Shown here piece by piece: positions 7,555 to 26,053 of a stretch of 40,343 nucleotides of DNA; the first letter of the stretch is position 1; every line of letters starts with the position of its first letter. The translations under genes and the position numbers were made by a program. Source of the stretch: a virus; the IMG/VR virus record IMGVR_UViG_3300045988_036893, positions 1-40,343 of that record. The stretch is one strand, 5' to 3'. The notes beneath the pieces are model-generated. The model searched no databases and was not told the DNA's origin. It saw only the letters and a list, made by a program, of their open reading frames with translations.

Positions 7555-8838
7555 CTATCTGTAAATGCTTTGATACTTCATTGCCGTATTGTCTCCGGCT
7601 TTGTTCGCTGTGCTTTCCATCGCATAACGCACCGCGTCAATGTGATGGTTGTTCAAATCCGGGTACCCTTCCAGCACTTCCCCAGTTTTCGCGTCTCGCT
7701 CGTACTCGTACTCGCTGAATTCCTTTGCTGTGTCCGGGCATCGTTCTGGATCAATGACAATCGCTTCCAGCATTTGCAACCATTTTGTGCCGTATCGAAC
7801 CGATTTCGGCCCTTTACGGGCAGGGAATGTTTTCACGCCGTACTTGTTATAGTCCGCAATGGATTTTGGCTCGGCGCTATCCGCGCAGATTTTGTCCTCG
7901 CGCGTAAGCCCTCTGTCCAGCAGCAGTTGCGCAGTGTCCCTATTGCTGGTTCTACGTCGTGTCAGTTCATCGAAGATGTACAGCGTTCGACGTGCCGCGT
8001 CATAGTGCATAGCATTGTATGCCCACGGGTCAGGGTACCAGCCCCAGTCCACGCCGCGTTTGATACGATCAAAGCTGGCAATCTGTTCATCGGTGATTTT
8101 CTCAATGCGCAGATTCTCAAATACCGCCGTGCCGCTGCCGACAACCTCTCCTAAATACTCATGCCGGTATGCTGTTTCGTTTGTGCGCTGCAAGTATTCT
8201 GCATCGGCCAGGAACCGTTCTCCGAGCCATTCTGCGGGCGTTGTTTTGTAGGTGCTATGATGTATTAGCTTTCCATCGCGGGCTTTCAGTGCGTAGCCGT
8301 TCGCCCAGTTCCGCGCCATTGCGGGCGGGTTGAAGCTCTTGAACGTGATAAACCAGTCACCGCCGCGCAAGCAGGATTGCTCCACATTTCGGATTTGCTC
8401 TTCACCGTCAAACTGGTCAAGCTCTTCAAACCAGCAGATGCCGATATAACCAAACGGCACTTTGATTGACTTTACCTTTCCGGGGTCATCAACGCCGAAA
8501 AAAAGCACCTTTTGTCCAGTTGGCAAATAGGTGCATTCCATAGGGGAGACCGTGCAACGAAAACGATCGTGCAAACCAAGCTCATTAATTGCCCAGACGA
8601 TTTGCGCATAAACGCTTGTGCGCAGTGTGTTGCCGACCTTGCGGAACACTGCTGCGTGGCATTGCGGATGTGCTCTCAGCTGCAAAATGACTTCAACGCC
8701 AATAAAGCTTGACTTTGTGCTGCCACGTCCGCCTTTTGCCACAAACTCTTGAACTTTACCATCCTCAATGTCCCAAAACGGCTTATAAAATGCTGGCGAA
8801 ATAATATCCTTGATATGTTTATTCTCTTGGCACATCAT
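7555..8838 (-). CDS. terL: terminase large subunit (PBSX/Terminase_3 type)
   Basis: It has the Walker A-like motif KGGRGSTKSS, is 427 aa, and overlaps the terS stop. Confidence 0.9.
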   Translation of the reverse strand: MMCQENKHIKDIISPAFYKPFWDIEDGKVQEFVAKGGRGSTKSSFIGVEVILQLRAHPQCHAAVFRKVGNTLRTSVYAQIVWAINELGLHDRFRCTVSPMECTYLPTGQKVLFFGVDDPGKVKSIKVPFGYIGICWFEELDQFDGEEQIRNVEQSCLRGGDWFITFKSFNPPAMARNWANGYALKARDGKLIHHSTYKTTPAEWLGERFLADAEYLQRTNETAYRHEYLGEVVGSGTAVFENLRIEKITDEQIASFDRIKRGVDWGWYPDPWAYNAMHYDAARRTLYIFDELTRRRTSNRDTAQLLLDRGLTREDKICADSAEPKSIADYNKYGVKTFPARKGPKSVRYGTKWLQMLEAIVIDPERCPDTAKEFSEYEYERDAKTGEVLEGYPDLNNHHIDAVRYAMESTANKAGDNTAMKYQSIYR

Positions 8839-9253
8839 AAATAATATTCACCGTTCCCGCGCTCTCTTGCTTCGGCTTGTCATCCCATCCAAAATTTGCC
8901 CGCAAACTGAACTGTGCGCCGCCGGAGCCGTCTTTGTCGTACAATCTTTCTTCGGCGTACTGTTCGCAACGGGCCTTTGCACGCGTAATCGTGTCATTGA
9001 ACTCTGGTTTGTTTTGATAATTCAAAAGCGCCTGCCTTGATGCAAAACCAAGTGCAAGCGCCAATCCTGTCACAGTAGGCGGTTTTTTATCGTCATAGAT
9101 AATATAGCCGTTTTTATTTCGCATCGGTTCTCCGTTATCGTCTAAAAACGGCTTTCCTTTACAGGCTTCAAAGTAGGCATCAATCTTTTCTTGCATTGCC
9201 TTTACGCTTCTGTATTTAGGTGGTGCGCCCCCCGGATTTTTTCTTGATGCCAC
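8819..9253 (-). CDS. terS: terminase small subunit
   Basis: GTG start at 9253 with GAGGTG upstream. The segment PPTVTGLALALGFASRQALLNY is HTH-like, as is typical of small terminases. Confidence 0.8.
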   Translation of the reverse strand: MASRKNPGGAPPKYRSVKAMQEKIDAYFEACKGKPFLDDNGEPMRNKNGYIIYDDKKPPTVTGLALALGFASRQALLNYQNKPEFNDTITRAKARCEQYAEERLYDKDGSGGAQFSLRANFGWDDKPKQESAGTVNIIYDVPRE

Positions 9254-9274
9254 TTTATCACCTCGCTTTACAAC

Positions 9275-9302
9275 ACAAAAAGCCCACACAATTTGTGTAG
9301 GC
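9275..9302 (-). terminator. rho-independent terminator 22 nt upstream of the terS start
   Basis: Minus strand reads GCCTACAC-AAATT-GTGTGGGC followed by TTTTTGTGTTG. Confidence 0.7.
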
Positions 9303-9708
9303 TTATATCCCCCCAAAACCCCTTTGCGCCGGAGGAAAAGCGCGTTCCCGCCCTGTCGGTTTATGCCGTGCCGACCTCACCCGTTGCGGTGAGCAAATCC
9401 GCAACGCTTTTGTACAGTCAGAATTTAACGTGCCTGCTGTCCACACGCTTTTTTCATCCGCTGCATTTATCCCCCGCGTGCGGATTCGCGGTTCTGCTTT
9501 GATGTAATGGGTTTCGGCGATGCGTAACGGCGTCAGTAACAGCGTTCGCACAAGCAGATGCCGGGCAGACTTTTTCAGGCTCTCGAAGTCCCGTTGCGAC
9601 CTGCCATCGCGCCGCGCTCCTTATCGGCTTGCCGCTTTGCTTACAGCGTTCATGTTAGCTATCGCGTTTCCTGCGCCGGGCTTTCACCGGTGGGAGCGAC
9701 CCAGCTTT
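9303..9708 (-). ncRNA. candidate large structured non-coding RNA (about 400 nt body)
   Basis: No credible ORF is present (track ORFs here lack an RBS and are Arg/Cys/Pro-rich). Hairpins are dense, including GAAA loops, a long-range 7-bp helix (9552-9558 with 9493-9499), and mutually exclusive helices at 9376-9406. Confidence 0.4.
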
Positions 9709-9792
9709 CGCCAACAGCAGGATTTGAACCTACAACTAAACCCGCAGCTATGCTGTCATGAGGCCCGGCTTTACCAGTTAAGCTATGTTGGC
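9709..9792 (-). other. tRNA-like element lacking a canonical anticodon arm
   Basis: It has a perfect acceptor stem GCCAACA/TGTTGGC, a D arm GCTT-AACTGGTA-AAGC and a T arm GTAGG-TTCAAAT-CCTGC. The 34 nt between them (containing CTCATGA) form only a 4-bp hairpin. No CCA is encoded. Confidence 0.4.
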
Positions 9793-9894
9793 ATATAAAT
9801 GCGCGGCAGTTGCGCGTGTTGCACGGTGTGCAAGTTATAAGCAAGTTAATATTTAACGTATTAACGCGCTATATTTTAAAACTTGTCACAAACT

Positions 9895-9941: not shown

Positions 9942-10259
9942 TCACTCTACAGGCTCGTATGTCTTTTCAAAGATGCCCGGCTTGCACGGATACTGTTCAC
10001 CGCCCACACCAGTGATAATCCAGTCACCGGGAGCAGCGTGCATAACGCCTTCCAGCGTAAAAATATCAAGTTCTTCCTCCGTCTGGTACGCTTCAATGAC
10101 AACCGGCTTTTTCCTAAAATACATAGGCGTCACATCCTGCTTGCTTTTCGGCCCTTCCTCTTTTTTCTTGGCTTCTTCCTCTTCCTCGCGGCGGTGTCTG
10201 GAAATCGTGTTCTGCATATGGATTGCGCCAACGATAGCGCCGACAGGAATATACGGCAT
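9942..10259 (-). CDS. hypothetical protein (105 aa) with conserved small phage C-terminal domain
   Basis: ATG at 10259 follows GGAG. The C-terminus reads [29 protein letters not shown], a motif I recall from small phage proteins. Confidence 0.6.
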
Positions 10260-10375
10260 AGGTCTCCGTCCTTTCTCTCCGACATAAATGTCGGGAACAT
10301 CTAAAAAATAAGGCTCATGCTTTCTGCCTTGCAAGTTTCTTCGGCAAGCCATACCAGCACAAGCCTGTTCAGAAC

Positions 10376-10426
10376 CCGCCACATGGTACGCACTGTTAGT
10401 AGGCGTATGGCGGTTGCCTAACGGGG
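10376..10426 (-). ncRNA. structured RNA motif, copy A (invariant 18-mer inside a covarying outer stem)
   Basis: The outer stem pairs CCGCCA (10376-10381) with TGGCGG (10408-10413). The core CGCACTGTTAGTAGGCGT (10389-10406) is identical to copy B. Confidence 0.5.
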
Positions 10427-10476
10427 AACACAATTGCCGCGTCCGGCCCTGCTACCTTTACCCGTATCATCGGCCT

Positions 10477-10552
10477 TGGTGCTGAATCGAGGACTTGAAC
10501 CCCGAACCCCCTGATTACAAAACAGGTTCTCTACCAGTTGAGATAATCCAGC
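10477..10552 (-). tRNA. tRNA-Thr (anticodon UGU), CCA encoded
   Basis: I folded the cloverleaf by hand: 7-bp acceptor stem (one G-U), D arm TCTC/GAGA, anticodon loop TTTGTAA, T loop TTCAAGT. Length is 76 nt. Confidence 0.8.
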
Positions 10553-10640
10553 ATGTGCGGCTTACCGTTTGCACGGTCATTGTCATCGTTTGTGAGGTAT
10601 GCCGCGCACGCTCACACAGACTAGGAGCTACCTATTCATC

Positions 10641-10714
10641 TGGCACGGGTGGAAGGTCTTGACCCCTCATCTTGCGGTTTTGGAGACCGCAGTTCTGCAT
10701 TGAACTACACCCGC
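10641..10714 (-). tRNA. tRNA-Trp (anticodon CCA), CCA encoded, non-canonical D and T loops
   Basis: The acceptor is GCGGGTG/CACCCGT (G1-U72), the anticodon arm is GCGGT-CTCCAAA-ACCGC, and the T loop GTCAAGA is atypical. Length is 74 nt. Confidence 0.6.
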
Positions 10715-10719
10715 ATAAA

Positions 10720-10777
10720 CCCCCGCAGTTTGCGCACTGTTAGTAGGCGTGCTGGGGGGTGCCTATCTGGCTACCCC
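10720..10777 (-). ncRNA. structured RNA motif, copy B
   Basis: It carries the same 18-mer at 10733-10750. The outer stem is CCCCCGCAG/GCTGGGGGG (compensatory relative to copy A). Adjacent hairpin GGGGT-AGCCAGATAGGC-ACCCC competes for the G/C run. Confidence 0.5.
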
Positions 10778-10817
10778 GGCAAGCGTACCTGACGGGTAAC
10801 CCCGGCAAGCGTACCTG
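10773..10817 (-). repeat. 19-mer ACCCCGGCAAGCGTACCTG repeated twice (26-bp period), each forming a hairpin
   Basis: The exact copies are at 10773-10791 and 10799-10817. The second forms CCGGCA-AGCGTACC-TGCCGG. Confidence 0.7.
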
Positions 10818-10928
10818 CCGGATATATAGCCAGAGTCATCGGCGTTGGAGCCGCACATAGGTCTCACACCATTTCTACGCGGTCGCTTCTAAGCGTAGCG
10901 CCCTTATCTTGCGATTGGCTATGCGGCA

Positions 10929-10952
10929 TATAAAATGCCGGTCTTTCCCGGC
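10929..10952 (-). terminator. terminator-like hairpin downstream of the late activator gene
   Basis: Minus strand reads GCCGG-GAAAGA-CCGGC followed by ATTTTAT. The T-run is short, so it would be weak. Confidence 0.35.
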
Positions 10953-11057
10953 TGCCAGCTATGAGAATAGGAGAATTGAAACAATAAAGAAAAGAGGTTT
11001 TAGCAATGTCGTATGCTGTCCCGTTCTTACATCATCCAGCATATCTATAATAACAGG

Positions 11058-11489
11058 TTAAAAGTGAACTGGAGTGCACAGATTTTCAATTGCAGCGCGG
11101 TGTAATTTTTTTGCCCATCGCTCGGAAATATTTAGATTTATAGCAATCTTCCACCAATACGGTGTGCCGACAATATACCGCTCCCGCAAAACATCCCGCT
11201 GCATTTGGTTTTGCACAGAGTTTATTGCGGTTTCAATTTCTTCCCGTTGCATCTCGGTGTCAATAATCTGCTTGTATAGAGCTTCTTGGCGCTCCATGAT
11301 TCTGCAAACGGCATCCTCGATTTTATTTTTACCGCCAGCAGACACCACAACGGGGGATAACGCTTTAGTTGTCGCTGCTGCTCGTTCACGTTCGCTCTGT
11401 ATCTGCTGGCGCAGCTGTCGTTCATGATTTCTGCTGCGTTGGTATCTCCATAGCCACGTTTTCTTTTGGTTGAATTCTTCTCGAGTCAT
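11058..11489 (-). CDS. sigma-70 region-4-like late transcriptional activator (RinA/ArpU/DUF1492-like)
   Basis: ATG at 11489 follows AAAGGAG. The C-terminus reads RDVLRERYIVGTPYWWKIAINLNISERWAKKLHRAAIENL. It is the last regulatory gene before the packaging region. Confidence 0.6.
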   Translation of the reverse strand: MTREEFNQKKTWLWRYQRSRNHERQLRQQIQSERERAAATTKALSPVVVSAGGKNKIEDAVCRIMERQEALYKQIIDTEMQREEIETAINSVQNQMQRDVLRERYIVGTPYWWKIAINLNISERWAKKLHRAAIENLCTPVHF

Positions 11490-11610
11490 TGTTTCTCCTT
11501 TCTTCAAGTTTCATGCAGCGCGGCAGCGTGCAAATATTGCCATTTTTCCACTCGCATGTCGCGCAAAGATGTTTGCGGGCGTATTCATCAACTAATTGCT
11601 GTTTTGTCAT
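11422..11610 (-). CDS. small Cys-rich hypothetical protein (62 aa)
   Basis: It has a GGAGGTG RBS and ATGA overlap with the upstream gene. It overlaps the next start by 68 nt. Confidence 0.5.
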   Translation of the reverse strand: MTKQQLVDEYARKHLCATCEWKNGNICTLPRCMKLEERRNNDSRRIQPKENVAMEIPTQQKS

Positions 11611-22745: not shown

Positions 22746-23040
22746 TGCCAGAGTAAGGCAGAAAGGAAGGTGGTCGTCCCTTGACCCAACTTTTGAGTAT
22801 GCCAGTTCCAGACTAAAGAAATTGCGTAACGCGCTATGGCTTAAACGGCTGCCCCAAAGCTGCCAAAGGTTACGGCAAGTCCACAGAATTGCAAGTTCGT
22901 TTTGCAAGCAGCGGATGCGCATTGCACAAAGGACCGTGTACTTGCTCGCTCACATTGAGCGGTTCCGTTGCTGCAAACTTGTTCTGGTAAAAAACTTTGG
23001 GAAAAATCCGTCTGCTAACGAACAGCAGGCGGATTTTTTT
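22746..23040 (+). ncRNA. candidate non-coding RNA of about 295 nt (promoter-to-terminator unit without a credible ORF)
   Basis: A strong promoter and a strong terminator bracket it. Inside are only an 11-codon ORF and an RBS-less ORF that reads through the terminator. Internal helices include TGCC/GGCA, TTGCAA/TTGCAA and CGCTCA-CAT-TGAGCG. Confidence 0.55.
23002..23040. terminator. bidirectional rho-independent terminator
   Basis: A 10-bp stem TCCGTCTGCT/AGCAGGCGGA (one G-U) with a 7-nt loop is flanked by A5 on the left and T7 on the right. Confidence 0.8.
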
Positions 23041-23671: not shown

Positions 23672-24577
23672 ATGGGCTTTTTTGACTTTTTGAAGCCGAA
23701 ACAAAAAGTAAATGTTTCCATAACTACACATGAGCCGACTAAAGATGAAATTGCAAAGCAGTATGCTGGTTACTGCAAAGCACAAACAGAAAAGCGGCAT
23801 GCTGAACAGGAAGAGCGAGCAAACGATAATTTTCTAGCGCTGTCTGCTGATGATCTCGCAGACAAAAACGGTCTAAAGCCAACAGAAATTTTAATGCTTT
23901 CTTATTTAGAGAAATATTCCAGCGGAAAGCCTGTTGCAAAGTTCTGGCATTATGATTATGGCGTTGATGATGTTTGGCCTATTATTAAAAAGCTGGAATC
24001 AATGGGATTTGCCGAAAACGGAAAATTGACCGAAAAGGGAAAAGCAGAAATAAAAGCCAACGAATACGTTTATTTTTATCACAGAAAATCCTATGCTCAT
24101 TGGGCTTTTACTTTGCCGGAGTTTTGTCGCGCCGTAAACGCTCGAAGAGACATCCCATATCGAGATTTAATATGGGGGCAATATAATAAACTATATATGG
24201 AAGCATTTTCATCTCCAAAAAGATGCCGTGATCTGCGCTATTTAATGTATGAATTTTTAGAGGATGAGAAGAAGTACAAAAATGCTTTTTCCATGTTGCT
24301 TGAAATTCCGTTTTACGACATGAATTGCGGTCGCCCGTTTGTATCGCCTAGTGTTATGCTGGAACTAAAAAAGGCGCAAAAGAAAGCATCCCTTACAGAA
24401 GAAGAAGTCTTTAATATGGCAAAAGGAAGCTATAGCAGAATCTTTGTTGATAATCCTACCATTCCCGCAATGGATGCCGCAGGCGTTGTCACGTCTTACA
24501 TTTTTGGAAAAGACGGGCTTGCGCAGAGGGTTCTAAAATCTTACAAAATAGATTGCAATAGATTGTTTTCCGCATAA
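23672..24577 (+). CDS. orphan 301-aa protein in AT-rich island next to the integrase (family not recognised)
   Basis: It is a long clean ORF, visibly AT-richer than the genome, on the same strand as the integrase. Confidence 0.7.
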   Translation: MGFFDFLKPKQKVNVSITTHEPTKDEIAKQYAGYCKAQTEKRHAEQEERANDNFLALSADDLADKNGLKPTEILMLSYLEKYSSGKPVAKFWHYDYGVDDVWPIIKKLESMGFAENGKLTEKGKAEIKANEYVYFYHRKSYAHWAFTLPEFCRAVNARRDIPYRDLIWGQYNKLYMEAFSSPKRCRDLRYLMYEFLEDEKKYKNAFSMLLEIPFYDMNCGRPFVSPSVMLELKKAQKKASLTEEEVFNMAKGSYSRIFVDNPTIPAMDAAGVVTSYIFGKDGLAQRVLKSYKIDCNRLFSA

Positions 24578-24976: not shown

Positions 24977-26053
24977 ATGAAAAGAACAAATACAGCGAGA
25001 TGGATTGAATCTGCCCAGCGCTGGCAGATAAACGTGCAGAAAGACGGCGTGCGCAAAACCTTTACCAGCGCCAAGCCGGGGCGCACAGGCCAGCGGGAAG
25101 CCAACAAAAAAGCAGATGACTGGCTAGAAAACGGCTTGCAAACGCGCGGAAAGACGGTCGAGAGCGCATATAAAGAATACCTTGCGAGAGAATCAAAAAT
25201 ATCGGGCATAAGCAATTTTAGACCAAAGGAAAGCCGCTGGCGCATATGGATTCAGCCGGAAATTGGGCACCGGCGGTTGGAATCGTTGACGCAGCAGCAA
25301 GTGCAAACAGTTTTAGACAACGCCAAAGCCGCTGGAAAAAGCCGTAAAACGCTTCAAAATATCTATGGAGACATCACATCGTTTTTTCGGTTTGCACGCA
25401 ATTCAGGCTATACAACGTTTGTACCAGATAACTTGAACATTCCCGCTGGAACTCCAAAGCCGCAAAAGAAAATATTGCAGCCAGACGATTTAGCAATTTT
25501 ATTGTCAAGCGACAAAACCAAGTACATGGGCAAGGAAGCCAAAGACCCTTATATCAACGCATACCGCCTTGCTGTTCTGACCGGGATTCGACCGGGTGAG
25601 TTGATTGGTATGCAGTGGGAAGATGTGAAAGAAAACAGAATTTTTCTGCGGCGTGCGATCAACATTTATGGAGAAAAAACAACAGGTAAAAATGACAATG
25701 CGGTTAGAGCAATTGAATTGTCCGACATGGCTAAAAGCGTAATAGATGCGCAACGCGAACTTACAAAAAATGGTAAAAGTGTTTTTGGCATCTCAGATGA
25801 GCACTTGCTCTATAAATGGTGGAGAAAGTATTTCGATTACAACGGAATAAATTATGTTTCTCTTTACGAGCTTCGACACACGTTTGTATCGATTGCAAGC
25901 GCACTCCCGGAAGGGCAGCTCAAACAGATTGTTGGGCACAGCAAAAATATGGATACATTTGGTGTGTACGGCCACGCAGTCAACGGCCAGGCCGAAAAAA
26001 TAGCCTCTGCGATTGACGAAACATTTAAGGACGTGCTAAAAAGTACACACTAA
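24977..26053 (+). CDS. int: tyrosine recombinase / phage integrase
   Basis: It has an AAGGAG RBS. The C-terminal catalytic pattern is YELRHTFVS ... VGHSKNMDTFGVYGH. Confidence 0.9.
   Translation: MKRTNTARWIESAQRWQINVQKDGVRKTFTSAKPGRTGQREANKKADDWLENGLQTRGKTVESAYKEYLARESKISGISNFRPKESRWRIWIQPEIGHRRLESLTQQQVQTVLDNAKAAGKSRKTLQNIYGDITSFFRFARNSGYTTFVPDNLNIPAGTPKPQKKILQPDDLAILLSSDKTKYMGKEAKDPYINAYRLAVLTGIRPGELIGMQWEDVKENRIFLRRAINIYGEKTTGKNDNAVRAIELSDMAKSVIDAQRELTKNGKSVFGISDEHLLYKWWRKYFDYNGINYVSLYELRHTFVSIASALPEGQLKQIVGHSKNMDTFGVYGHAVNGQAEKIASAIDETFKDVLKSTH

Follow-up and report, generated by a model that had tools for sequence, protein, structure and literature searches.

Variant abiF-type hairpins in the tRNA island of a temperate phage that has no Abi_2 gene

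Two RNA hairpins, A and B, in the tRNA island of the temperate phage IMGVR_UViG_3300045988_036893 (IMG/VR) are very probably orphan variants of the abiF motif (Rfam RF03085), the antitoxin RNA of AbiF/AbiD (Pfam Abi_2) HEPN ribonucleases in type III toxin-antitoxin systems (PMC12373285). The whole 40,343-nt record was analyzed and is called the window here. Both hairpins have the abiF architecture, their stems covary, and the same core sequence is found upstream of Abi_2 genes in other contigs. We propose that the phage hairpins are decoy antitoxins that disarm a host AbiF, a reading to which we give a probability of roughly 0.55. AbiF and AbiD are widespread abortive-infection toxins whose RNA antitoxin was characterized only in 2025, and the literature yielded one phage countermeasure to AbiF, an unrelated hairpin of the lactococcal phage sk1.

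Structure and identity of the paired hairpins

The island fills an 800-nt gap between open reading frames (ORFs; positions 10260–11057), and its RNA sense is the minus strand of the window, as for the neighboring genes. The two hairpins are as follows.

10757..10720, minus strand: abiF-type hairpin B, CCCCAGC-A-CGC-CUACUAACAGU-GCG-CAAACU-GCGGGGG, "CAAAC" internal-loop subtype
10413..10376, minus strand: abiF-type hairpin A, CCGCCAU-A-CGC-CUACUAACAGU-GCG-UACCAU-GUGGCGG, "UACCAU" internal-loop subtype

Each is made up of a 7-bp outer stem, a 1-nt bulge, a 3-bp inner stem, an 11-nt loop, and a 6-nt 3' internal loop; the predicted fold of hairpin A has a free energy of -15.4 kcal/mol (z -2.75). 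A preliminary description of this DNA had reported an invariant 18-mer in both copies. This sequence, CGCACTGTTAGTAGGCGT, is present exactly at 10389–10406 and 10733–10750, with no third copy at three or fewer mismatches, compared with a chance expectation of 0.01 matches; none of 100 shuffled sequences contained two. An anticodon-arm mimic or degenerate tRNA was ruled out as the source of the motif because the loop has 11 nt and not 7.

The outer stems of the two copies had also been described as differing by compensatory changes. The covariation is strong, although the best register differs slightly from the one first given: the pairing that fits all instances is CCGCCAU/GUGGCGG for A, with a U.G closing pair, and CCCCAGC/GCGGGGG for B, with one A.G mismatch that relatives repair to CCCCCGC. 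The exact 18-mer was found in 15 IMG/VR contigs and its 17-mer core in 88 metagenome contigs. These contigs provide 64 distinct contexts, about 50 of which have an enclosing stem of at least 5 bp, with many different stem sequences. In a seed alignment of eight distinct instances, 92.5% of cells were paired and five of seven outer pairs were changed on both sides, whereas slid registers reached at most 69%. Contigs L002 and L011 (contigs and loci carry L numbers throughout) were left out of the seed because their internal loop is 1 nt longer and MAFFT placed them one column off register; they were aligned to the model later. With 39 distinct viral and metagenome instances, 96.7% of cells were paired, all seven outer pairs covaried, slid registers reached at most 63%, and 69 cells were double-changed compared with 16.6 in shuffles. 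The 18-mer therefore sits within a complementary stem in related phages, and the argument from compensatory changes for a conserved, structured, and presumably functional RNA is strongly upheld.

Among the relatives of the window phage, hairpin B alone is carried by L004, L010, and L012, hairpin A alone by L005, L006, L013, and L014, and both by L001 and L008. A scan of genome contigs with the 18-mer gave six matches. The match in L020 looks genuine; the one in L018 is inside a coding ORF and four others have no enclosing stem, and these were read as chance. Loop and internal-loop variants (CUACUGACAGU, with UAACAU or CAACAU) are present in the relatives L316–L320, L001, and L008, and an inner-stem A.G mismatch (AGC...GCG) in L316, L318, and L320; together, the variants amount to a natural mutational series. 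In an AT-rich family (L002, L007, L009, L011, L246, L258, and L290), the variant hairpin is enclosed in a second, long hairpin, GGAGACUGAGU...ACUCAGUCUC, with a U-run after it. This nested form lies just upstream of a VRR-NUC-like gene, and the motif is in effect within a terminator.

The motif was identified by a permissive Rfam scan of a 621-nt region, in which abiF (RF03085) covered copy B over its whole paired extent (25.5 bits, E = 0.03). Copy B aligned to all 37 positions of the model, which has a 6-bp outer stem, 1-nt bulge, 3-bp inner stem, 11-nt loop, and 6-nt internal loop. Written in these lengths, copy B is CCCAGC-A-CGC-CUACUAACAGU-GCG-CAAACU-GCGGGG, an exact fit, and the same structure string fits first the eight and then the 39 distinct variant instances. 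A covariance model made from the variant (R1) matched only copies A (61.9 bits) and B (58.0 bits) within the window, with the next match at 11.6 bits. When R1 was run on 866 kb around canonical abiF motifs, the best match was a canonical abiF hairpin (E = 0.0066). R1 is so sequence-specific that, with default filters, it regained just one of approximately 100 canonical hairpins; the Abi_2 loci described below were relied on instead. Rfam matches to RT-15, msiK, mascRNA, and HgcC in the gap were far below their cut-offs and were ignored. A blastn search of E. coli genomes with the 37-mer gave no match at E ≤ 1, which says little, the query being very short for 28 Gb.

The characterized antitoxins RCd22 (phi027/phiC2) and AbiFr (Prevotellaceae) have the same architecture element by element, with an inner stem of the form NGC/GCN and a loop of the form CU...AAC..U. 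RCd22 has two motif copies per unit, as does the window, and the CAAAC internal loop of the abiF motif is that of copy B. The RCd22 copies are 19 nt apart, whereas those in the window are 344 nt apart with two tRNAs between them. The abiF motif has the loop CUCUCAACGAU where the window has CUACUAACAGU, and the window hairpins score below the Rfam cut-off and have no Abi_2 gene downstream. abiF loci also have a direct U-run terminator; in the window, by contrast, the next element after copy B is a tRNA, and copy A is followed, at about 10 nt, by a separate terminator. Both window copies bear a loop, CUACUAACAGU, that occurs naturally as a variant in AbiF antitoxin RNA.

Toxin-linked and orphan copies of the motif

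Eighty viral loci encoding Abi_2 proteins (166 kb) were searched with R1. All 13 matches were within approximately 100 nt upstream of an Abi_2 start and had the orientation of the gene, with a top score of 30.6 bits (E = 1.7e-5). The best Abi_2-linked match, in L226, reads CCCCGCCA-CGC-CUCUCAACGAU-GCG-UACCA-UGGCGGGG and scores 48.8 bits with Rfam; outside the loop, copy A is nearly identical to the Abi_2-linked motif of L226, L227, and L215. The exact 17-nt core is itself located directly upstream of Pfam Abi_2 (PF07751) genes in the metagenome contigs L230, L314, and L265 (E 1e-46 to 1e-59), and matches to an Abi_2 hidden Markov model (HMM) were also found downstream of the variant core in L242, L251, L262, L284, and L308. 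Copy B has the core and internal-loop type of the Abi_2-linked L230 and L314, and copy A has the core and subtype of the Abi_2-linked L242. Both the CAAACU and UACCAU types are thus found in Abi_2-linked RNAs, and their toxins are only about 27% identical to each other. The toxin-linked loci have a common layout of promoter, leader (A)UACAGA, hairpin, U-run, ribosome-binding site, and start codon. In L251, L262, L284, and L308, the Abi_2 frame beside the intact variant hairpin looks fragmented, with split or short HMM matches; these may be toxin pseudogenes that kept their antitoxin RNA.

The window has no such gene. Abi_2/AbiF was not found by PADLOC among the 44 window ORFs or by Pfam among 10 selected, neighboring ORFs, and an HMM of 13 Abi_2 proteins had no match at E ≤ 10 in the six frames of the window. 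The sole unannotated 301-aa ORF (23672–24574), which has no Pfam family, was rejected as an AbiF candidate (hhalign probability against Abi_2, 0.15%). Both hairpin copies are therefore orphans.

Orphan hairpins are common in phages. A blastn search of GenBank phages with the Rfam consensus returned 75 records, mostly of lytic phages and always in unannotated spacers; the carriers infect Mycobacterium, Acinetobacter, Aeromonas, Synechococcus, Salicola, and others. Five carriers were inspected (Acj61, Thibault, S-SZBM1, CGphi29, and PZL-Ah8), and the hairpins of Acj61, Thibault, and S-SZBM1 score 55–58 bits with RF03085. In S-SZBM1, the hairpin is 4 nt upstream of tRNA-Ala inside a tRNA cluster, in Thibault it is near tRNA-Gly, and in a T7-like Aeromonas phage it is between the portal and scaffold genes. 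AbiF protein, searched by tblastn, was found only in temperate Firmicutes phages.

IMG/VR was searched with a 21-mer of the canonical core, which gave at least 120 loci (L028–L147) and at least 105 distinct instances; the counts below refer to the matches listed. An Abi_2 gene is present in only 5 of 105 loci, and 4 of 58 downstream ORFs are Abi_2, so that approximately 95% of canonical instances in these viral contigs are orphan. A tRNA on the same strand lies within 3–11 nt of 27 of the 105 hairpins, compared with a mean of 0.52 and a maximum of 3 for random placement, and the number rises to 32 within 50 nt and 41 within 300 nt. Most of the 27 close pairs (22) have the hairpin just upstream of the tRNA 5' end, with a spacing mode of 4–5 nt, and at least 13 different anticodons are involved. 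Taken over all searches, the motif is present in phages of at least five bacterial phyla, with at least 120 viral matches.

The window follows this arrangement. Its two tRNAs, which had been read from the sequence alone, were both called by ARAGORN and passed the Rfam covariance model, and both terminate in an encoded NCCA.

10714..10641, minus strand: tRNA-Trp(CCA), ARAGORN; Rfam tRNA 53.3 bits (cut-off 29)
10552..10477, minus strand: tRNA-Thr(UGU), ARAGORN; Rfam tRNA 59.8 bits (cut-off 29)

tRNA-Trp begins 5 nt past hairpin B, in keeping with the 3–5 nt mode of canonical phage abiF hairpins, and copy B is a textbook case of the tRNA-abutting arrangement. Outside the window's family, variant-core orphans are also found near tRNAs: 10 nt after tRNA-Arg in L294, 56 nt before tRNA-Ser in L279, and about 90 nt before tRNA-Gln in L015. 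Separately, 11 of the 58 ORFs downstream of orphan hairpins among the matches listed encode Metallophos, a calcineurin-like phosphoesterase (e.g., L058, L068, L069, L073, L110, L117, and L143). These cases are mostly from one lineage with the order hairpin, tRNA-Ile(GAU), ORF of about 186 aa, and there is one variant-core locus (L302); a tie to RNA-end repair after HEPN cleavage is conceivable.

A literature search that did not extend to the supplement of Weinberg et al. 2017 or to Zilberzwige-Tal et al. 2025 found a single mention of an orphan phage abiF, in cyanophage S-CREM1, where the small RNA is listed as an Rfam match without interpretation or tRNA linkage (PMC9964418). S-CREM1, to which S-SZBM1 is related, is a tRNA-rich lytic phage with an orphan abiF, as here; its motif is canonical (51.6 bits), whereas that of the window is a variant.

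Proposed decoy antitoxins and the alternatives

We infer a decoy role because the phage has no Abi_2 gene and yet bears antitoxin hairpins. RCd22, from the C. difficile prophage phi027, contains two abiF motifs and binds and neutralizes its toxin in cis and in trans, for which the stems are needed (PMC12373285). For a Prevotellaceae AbiF, the HEPN active site is blocked by the RNA; Cas13 is proposed to descend from this toxin family (PMC12737573; PMC13064643). Type III antitoxin RNAs are described in PMC12373285 as labile, with the toxin freed once infection halts host transcription. In the window phage, depletion of the labile host antitoxin would then be compensated by the phage copies, which would hold the toxin inhibited and prevent abortion of the infection.

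The tRNA setting suggests how such RNAs might be made. At a real AbiF locus, the hairpin plus U-run terminates the RNA a few bases past the stem; in a tRNA operon, RNase P would leave the same 3' end by cutting 5 nt downstream of hairpin B while transcription continues. The ends of hairpin A could be set by 3' processing of tRNA-Thr and by the terminator that closes the island, and the product, a motif plus terminator, would resemble RCd22.

10365..10303, minus strand: intrinsic terminator, stem GGCUUGUGCU/AGCAUGAGCC then UUAUUUUUU, -28.2 kcal/mol, z -3.1

The two internal-loop subtypes, CAAAC and UACCAU, accompany Abi_2 proteins of about 27% identity, and the phage may therefore cover two toxin clades. 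The distribution among relatives (B only, A only, or both) is as expected of accessory counter-defense cargo.

There are two precedents, in phages sk1 and PhiTE. A hairpin at the cos site of lactococcal phage sk1 inhibits AbiF (Rince et al. 2000; Zilberzwige-Tal et al. 2025, cited from PMC13064643), which is a precedent for RNA-based anti-AbiF activity; the sk1 hairpin is unlike the AbiF non-coding RNA according to that review, whereas the window hairpins resemble abiF. For transfer RNA-linked production, small RNAs are matured from tRNA-linked precursors in the tRNA-miRNA units of MHV68 and in engineered tRNA-gRNA arrays. In those units, as here, a structured RNA abuts a tRNA, and RNase P or RNase Z sets its end; they are eukaryotic, viral, or synthetic, and equivalent processing in the window is a prediction. 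Blower and colleagues are said to have shown by genetics in 2012 that Pectobacterium phage PhiTE escapes ToxIN through a pseudo-ToxI RNA antitoxin mimic. The likeness to PhiTE is that a phage RNA resembles a type III antitoxin, the phage has no toxin gene, and neutralization is (here, putatively) in trans; the first two of these features are present in the window. The differences are that the PhiTE target is ToxN rather than a HEPN Abi_2 protein, that its RNA consists of 36-nt tandem repeats cut by the toxin rather than discrete hairpins among tRNAs, and that mimicry in the window is deduced by comparison.

A broader extension is offered tentatively, and we hold it with less than even confidence: phage tRNA islands could double as counter-defense, with orphan hairpins in the tRNA operons of unrelated phages being excised by tRNA-processing enzymes to silence AbiD/F. 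In the window, two subtypes for two toxin clades, spare tRNAs, and a CCA-ended tRNA-like RNA might then form an integrated answer to RNA-cleaving defenses. The preliminary description had suggested in passing that phage tRNAs offset tRNA-targeting defenses; the direction of that remark appears right, but the defense implicated is AbiF. If orphan hairpins are decoys, a simple and portable RNA inhibitor of AbiF-type toxins is widespread in phages, and part of the long-debated role of phage tRNA clusters would be counter-defense and not codon supply. The decoy hypothesis is directly testable with a 40-nt RNA, and the stem, loop, and internal-loop variants provide a natural panel for mapping recognition by AbiF-type or early Cas13-type proteins.

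Several points weigh against this interpretation. Copy B is below the RF03085 gathering cut-off of 37 bits, and copy A was not reported by cmscan at E ≤ 10. The 11-nt loop matches the Rfam consensus at 7 of 11 bases and differs at four (8 of 11 match phage Acj61). The E-values of R1 are rough because of a shortened calibration, and the 39 sequences were aligned by fitting them to the model, with the inner stem and loop fixed by the search pattern. Transcription, processing, binding to host AbiF, and protection are predictions from sequence, and a matching AbiF system in the host is presumed. The hairpins could also be linked to tRNAs because they serve some function in tRNA transcripts, and not because this is a convenient way of producing decoys. 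As to the cut-off, copy B falls between the two validated motifs of RCd22, which as read in phage phiC2 have scores of 37.6 and 19.5 bits, and the Abi_2-linked motif of L175 scores 32.4 bits with RF03085; the 37-bit cut-off therefore excludes true abiF members, and it misses the whole variant class with the loop CUACUAACAGU.

Four other explanations were considered. The first, which is unlikely, reverses the direction of mimicry: a phage protein would bind the hairpin, as an RNA element native to the phage, in regulation or processing, and AbiD/F leaders would have copied the hairpin as bait to sense that protein. A similar arrangement is described for lactococcal AbiD1, where, according to PMC12373285 and PMC13064643, a conserved phage protein binds the structured abiD1 5' untranslated region and activates translation, and the excess of orphans over Abi_2-linked hairpins among the matches listed (approximately 100 versus 5 of 105) would also fit. 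However, the orphan motif spans T4-like and T7-like phages, mycobacteriophages, cyanophages, and Firmicutes siphophages with no shared protein seen and heterogeneous downstream ORFs, the window offers no candidate binding protein, and the RNA role shown in AbiF systems is direct toxin inhibition.

Similarly improbable is a role as processing or stability elements of tRNA precursors (for instance, to block exonucleases or to guide RNase P, RNase E, or RNase III) unrelated to AbiF. The tight 3–5 nt spacing to tRNA ends is consistent with this, as is the place of the hairpin in a larger array of structured spacers that includes a twin-repeat hairpin resembling an RNase III substrate. A generic block, however, needs no invariant 17-nt core across dozens of unrelated stems and has no need to match the sequence of an Abi_2 leader RNA, and approximately 60% of orphan canonical instances among the matches listed have no tRNA within 300 nt. 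Processing signals, one of the functions originally suggested for the island, are plausible for the twin 19-mer, which can form a hairpin of about 25 bp, but leave the motif itself unexplained.

It is very unlikely that the hairpins are neutral, decaying remains of a former AbiF locus of the phage. Temperate Firmicutes phages do bear complete AbiF systems, and fragmented Abi_2 genes sit beside intact hairpins in L251, L262, and L284/L308; against this, the window has two copies of different subtypes, each joined to a tRNA or tRNA-like RNA in a module that is duplicated, the core is (nearly) invariant in relatives while the stems change in a compensatory manner (e.g., CCGCCAU/GUGGCGG versus CAGCUAC/GUAGCUG), and no trace of an Abi_2 reading frame was found in the window.

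The put-like or boxB-like antitermination sites of the preliminary description, acting in read-through during late transcription, are the least probable reading of all: the location between a late-activator-like gene (DUF1492) and the packaging genes, the terminator-like hairpins at both island ends, and the motif inside a long hairpin with a U-run in the L002 family would suit such a role, but no Rfam antitermination family was matched, the hairpins are abiF-type by architecture, reciprocal model matches, and Abi_2 linkage, with the exact core being a leader RNA of Abi_2 genes, and they abut tRNAs in unrelated phages with different transcription strategies, including T7-like phages and phages of mycobacteria, cyanobacteria, and proteobacteria, which a lineage-specific system would not explain. 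A put site is a two-stem element and boxB is a short hairpin with a GNRA-like pentaloop beside boxA, both cis-acting ahead of terminators, whereas the window hairpins have an 11-nt loop and a two-tier stem.

Other elements of the island and the surrounding genome

In RNA sense, the island consists of an opening hairpin, a CCA-ended tRNA-like RNA, a twin-repeat hairpin, hairpin B, tRNA-Trp, tRNA-Thr, hairpin A, and the terminator. The 800-nt gap is best explained as a self-contained minus-strand operon of small RNAs; a promoter scan found no sigma-70 promoter on the minus strand within it. Elements not listed above are as follows.

10952..10937, minus strand: terminator-like hairpin GCCGGGAAAGACCGGC then AUUUUAU, from a terminator scan, at the upstream edge of the island
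10927..10846, minus strand: CCA-ended tRNA-like RNA (pseudo-cloverleaf), 8-bp acceptor stem, UCCA tail
10835..10848, minus strand: trailer repeat CCAACGCCGAUGAC after the tRNA-like RNA, read from the sequence
10831..10769, minus strand: twin 19-mer element, from exact repeat and folding
10765..10760, minus strand: leader UAGGCA of copy B, with its complement GCCUA inside the motif
10616..10591, minus strand: spacer hairpin UGUGAG...CUCACA between the two tRNAs, conserved in relatives
10479..10466, minus strand: trailer counterpart CCAAGGCCGAUGAU after tRNA-Thr
10420..10415, minus strand: leader UAGGCA of copy A, read from the sequence and relatives

The tRNA-like RNA is conserved and structured. 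As first described, it is not a tRNA: ARAGORN made no call at 10927..10846 and there was no Rfam tRNA match at E ≤ 10. It has a variable D-like hairpin, a long anticodon-like arm without a canonical anticodon loop, and a 4-bp T-like arm with a 5-nt loop, and its likeness to tRNA is confined to the acceptor stem, NCCA tail, and four-way junction. RNAalifold of five relatives recovered the four-way junction with 27 pairs, six of them with compensatory changes, and with the acceptor stem at 8 bp. In L005, the pseudo-cloverleaf stands in place of tRNA-Thr. A common trailer, CCAA(C/G)GCCGAUGA, is located behind both the pseudo-cloverleaf and tRNA-Thr, and the module [tRNA-like]-trailer-...-UAGGCA-hairpin is therefore duplicated. 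In L006, at approximately 230–330, the tRNA-Thr slot upstream of copy A is taken by a tRNA-like sequence that has a long variable arm and a GCU anticodon loop and was not called by ARAGORN.

The tandem 19-mer, ACCCCGGCAAGCGTACCTG, is exact at 10773–10791 and 10799–10817 (chance expectation 0.02). It can fold as two UACG-tetraloop hairpins of the same type (10821..10802 and 10796..10775; -12.7 and -8.8 kcal/mol), as had been noted, or alternatively as one long hairpin closed by GGCUA/UAGCC (-40.8 kcal/mol, z -5.6). The long form, of about 25 bp, resembles an RNase III substrate, and a processing site is a reasonable guess. The element is restricted to the window's phage family, always between the tRNA-like RNA and hairpin B.

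The conserved TGCCTA element reported beside each motif copy was seen at both (10415–10420 and 10760–10765), reading in RNA sense as a UAGGCA that precedes each hairpin. A UAGG(C) leader is also found upstream of orphan variant hairpins in L015, L020, L234, L237, and L295, and it complements (G)CCUA at the 5' loop edge. The L002 family has a UAGUA leader, matched by the complementary UACUA in the loop; Abi_2-linked copies carry (A)UACAGA instead. This complementarity could permit leader-loop pairing or an alternative fold. At the upstream edge of the island, the stem of the opening hairpin covaries in L010 (GCCCGG/ACGGGC), and at the other end the terminator sits upstream of a small PGDYG-like ORF. 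The genes and RNAs around the island are listed below.

11507..11058, minus strand: DUF1492 late-activator-like ORF (Pfam), preceding the 800-nt gap in RNA sense
10259..9942, minus strand: small PGDYG-like ORF, weak Pfam PGDYG match, following the gap
9793..9708, minus strand: odd tRNA, Rfam tRNA model 45.8 bits, 29-nt insertion in the anticodon region
9406..9343, minus strand: D12-methyl RNA (RF02950), 89 bits, directly upstream of the small terminase gene
9316..8819, minus strand: terS
8838..7555, minus strand: terL

The window has 50% G+C and an integrase gene at 24977–26053. Its relatives lie on contigs of about 40–42 kb, so it is probably a near-complete genome. No close relative was found among GenBank phages, where the tRNAs and the small ORF alone were matched. 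The odd tRNA was labeled "His(atg)" by ARAGORN; its loop is CUCAUGA, which may instead indicate CAU, and it has no encoded CCA. It is kept in L001, L006, and L008, and just downstream of it, at 9589–9693, there is a weak match to group II intron D1-D4 (24 bits, cut-off 49). The D12-methyl RNA is also present in the relative L001 (95.5 bits). In the lysogeny region, a FuFi-1 RNA (RF02986, 117 bits) at 22824–23038 on the plus strand lies upstream of the 301-aa ORF and the integrase gene.

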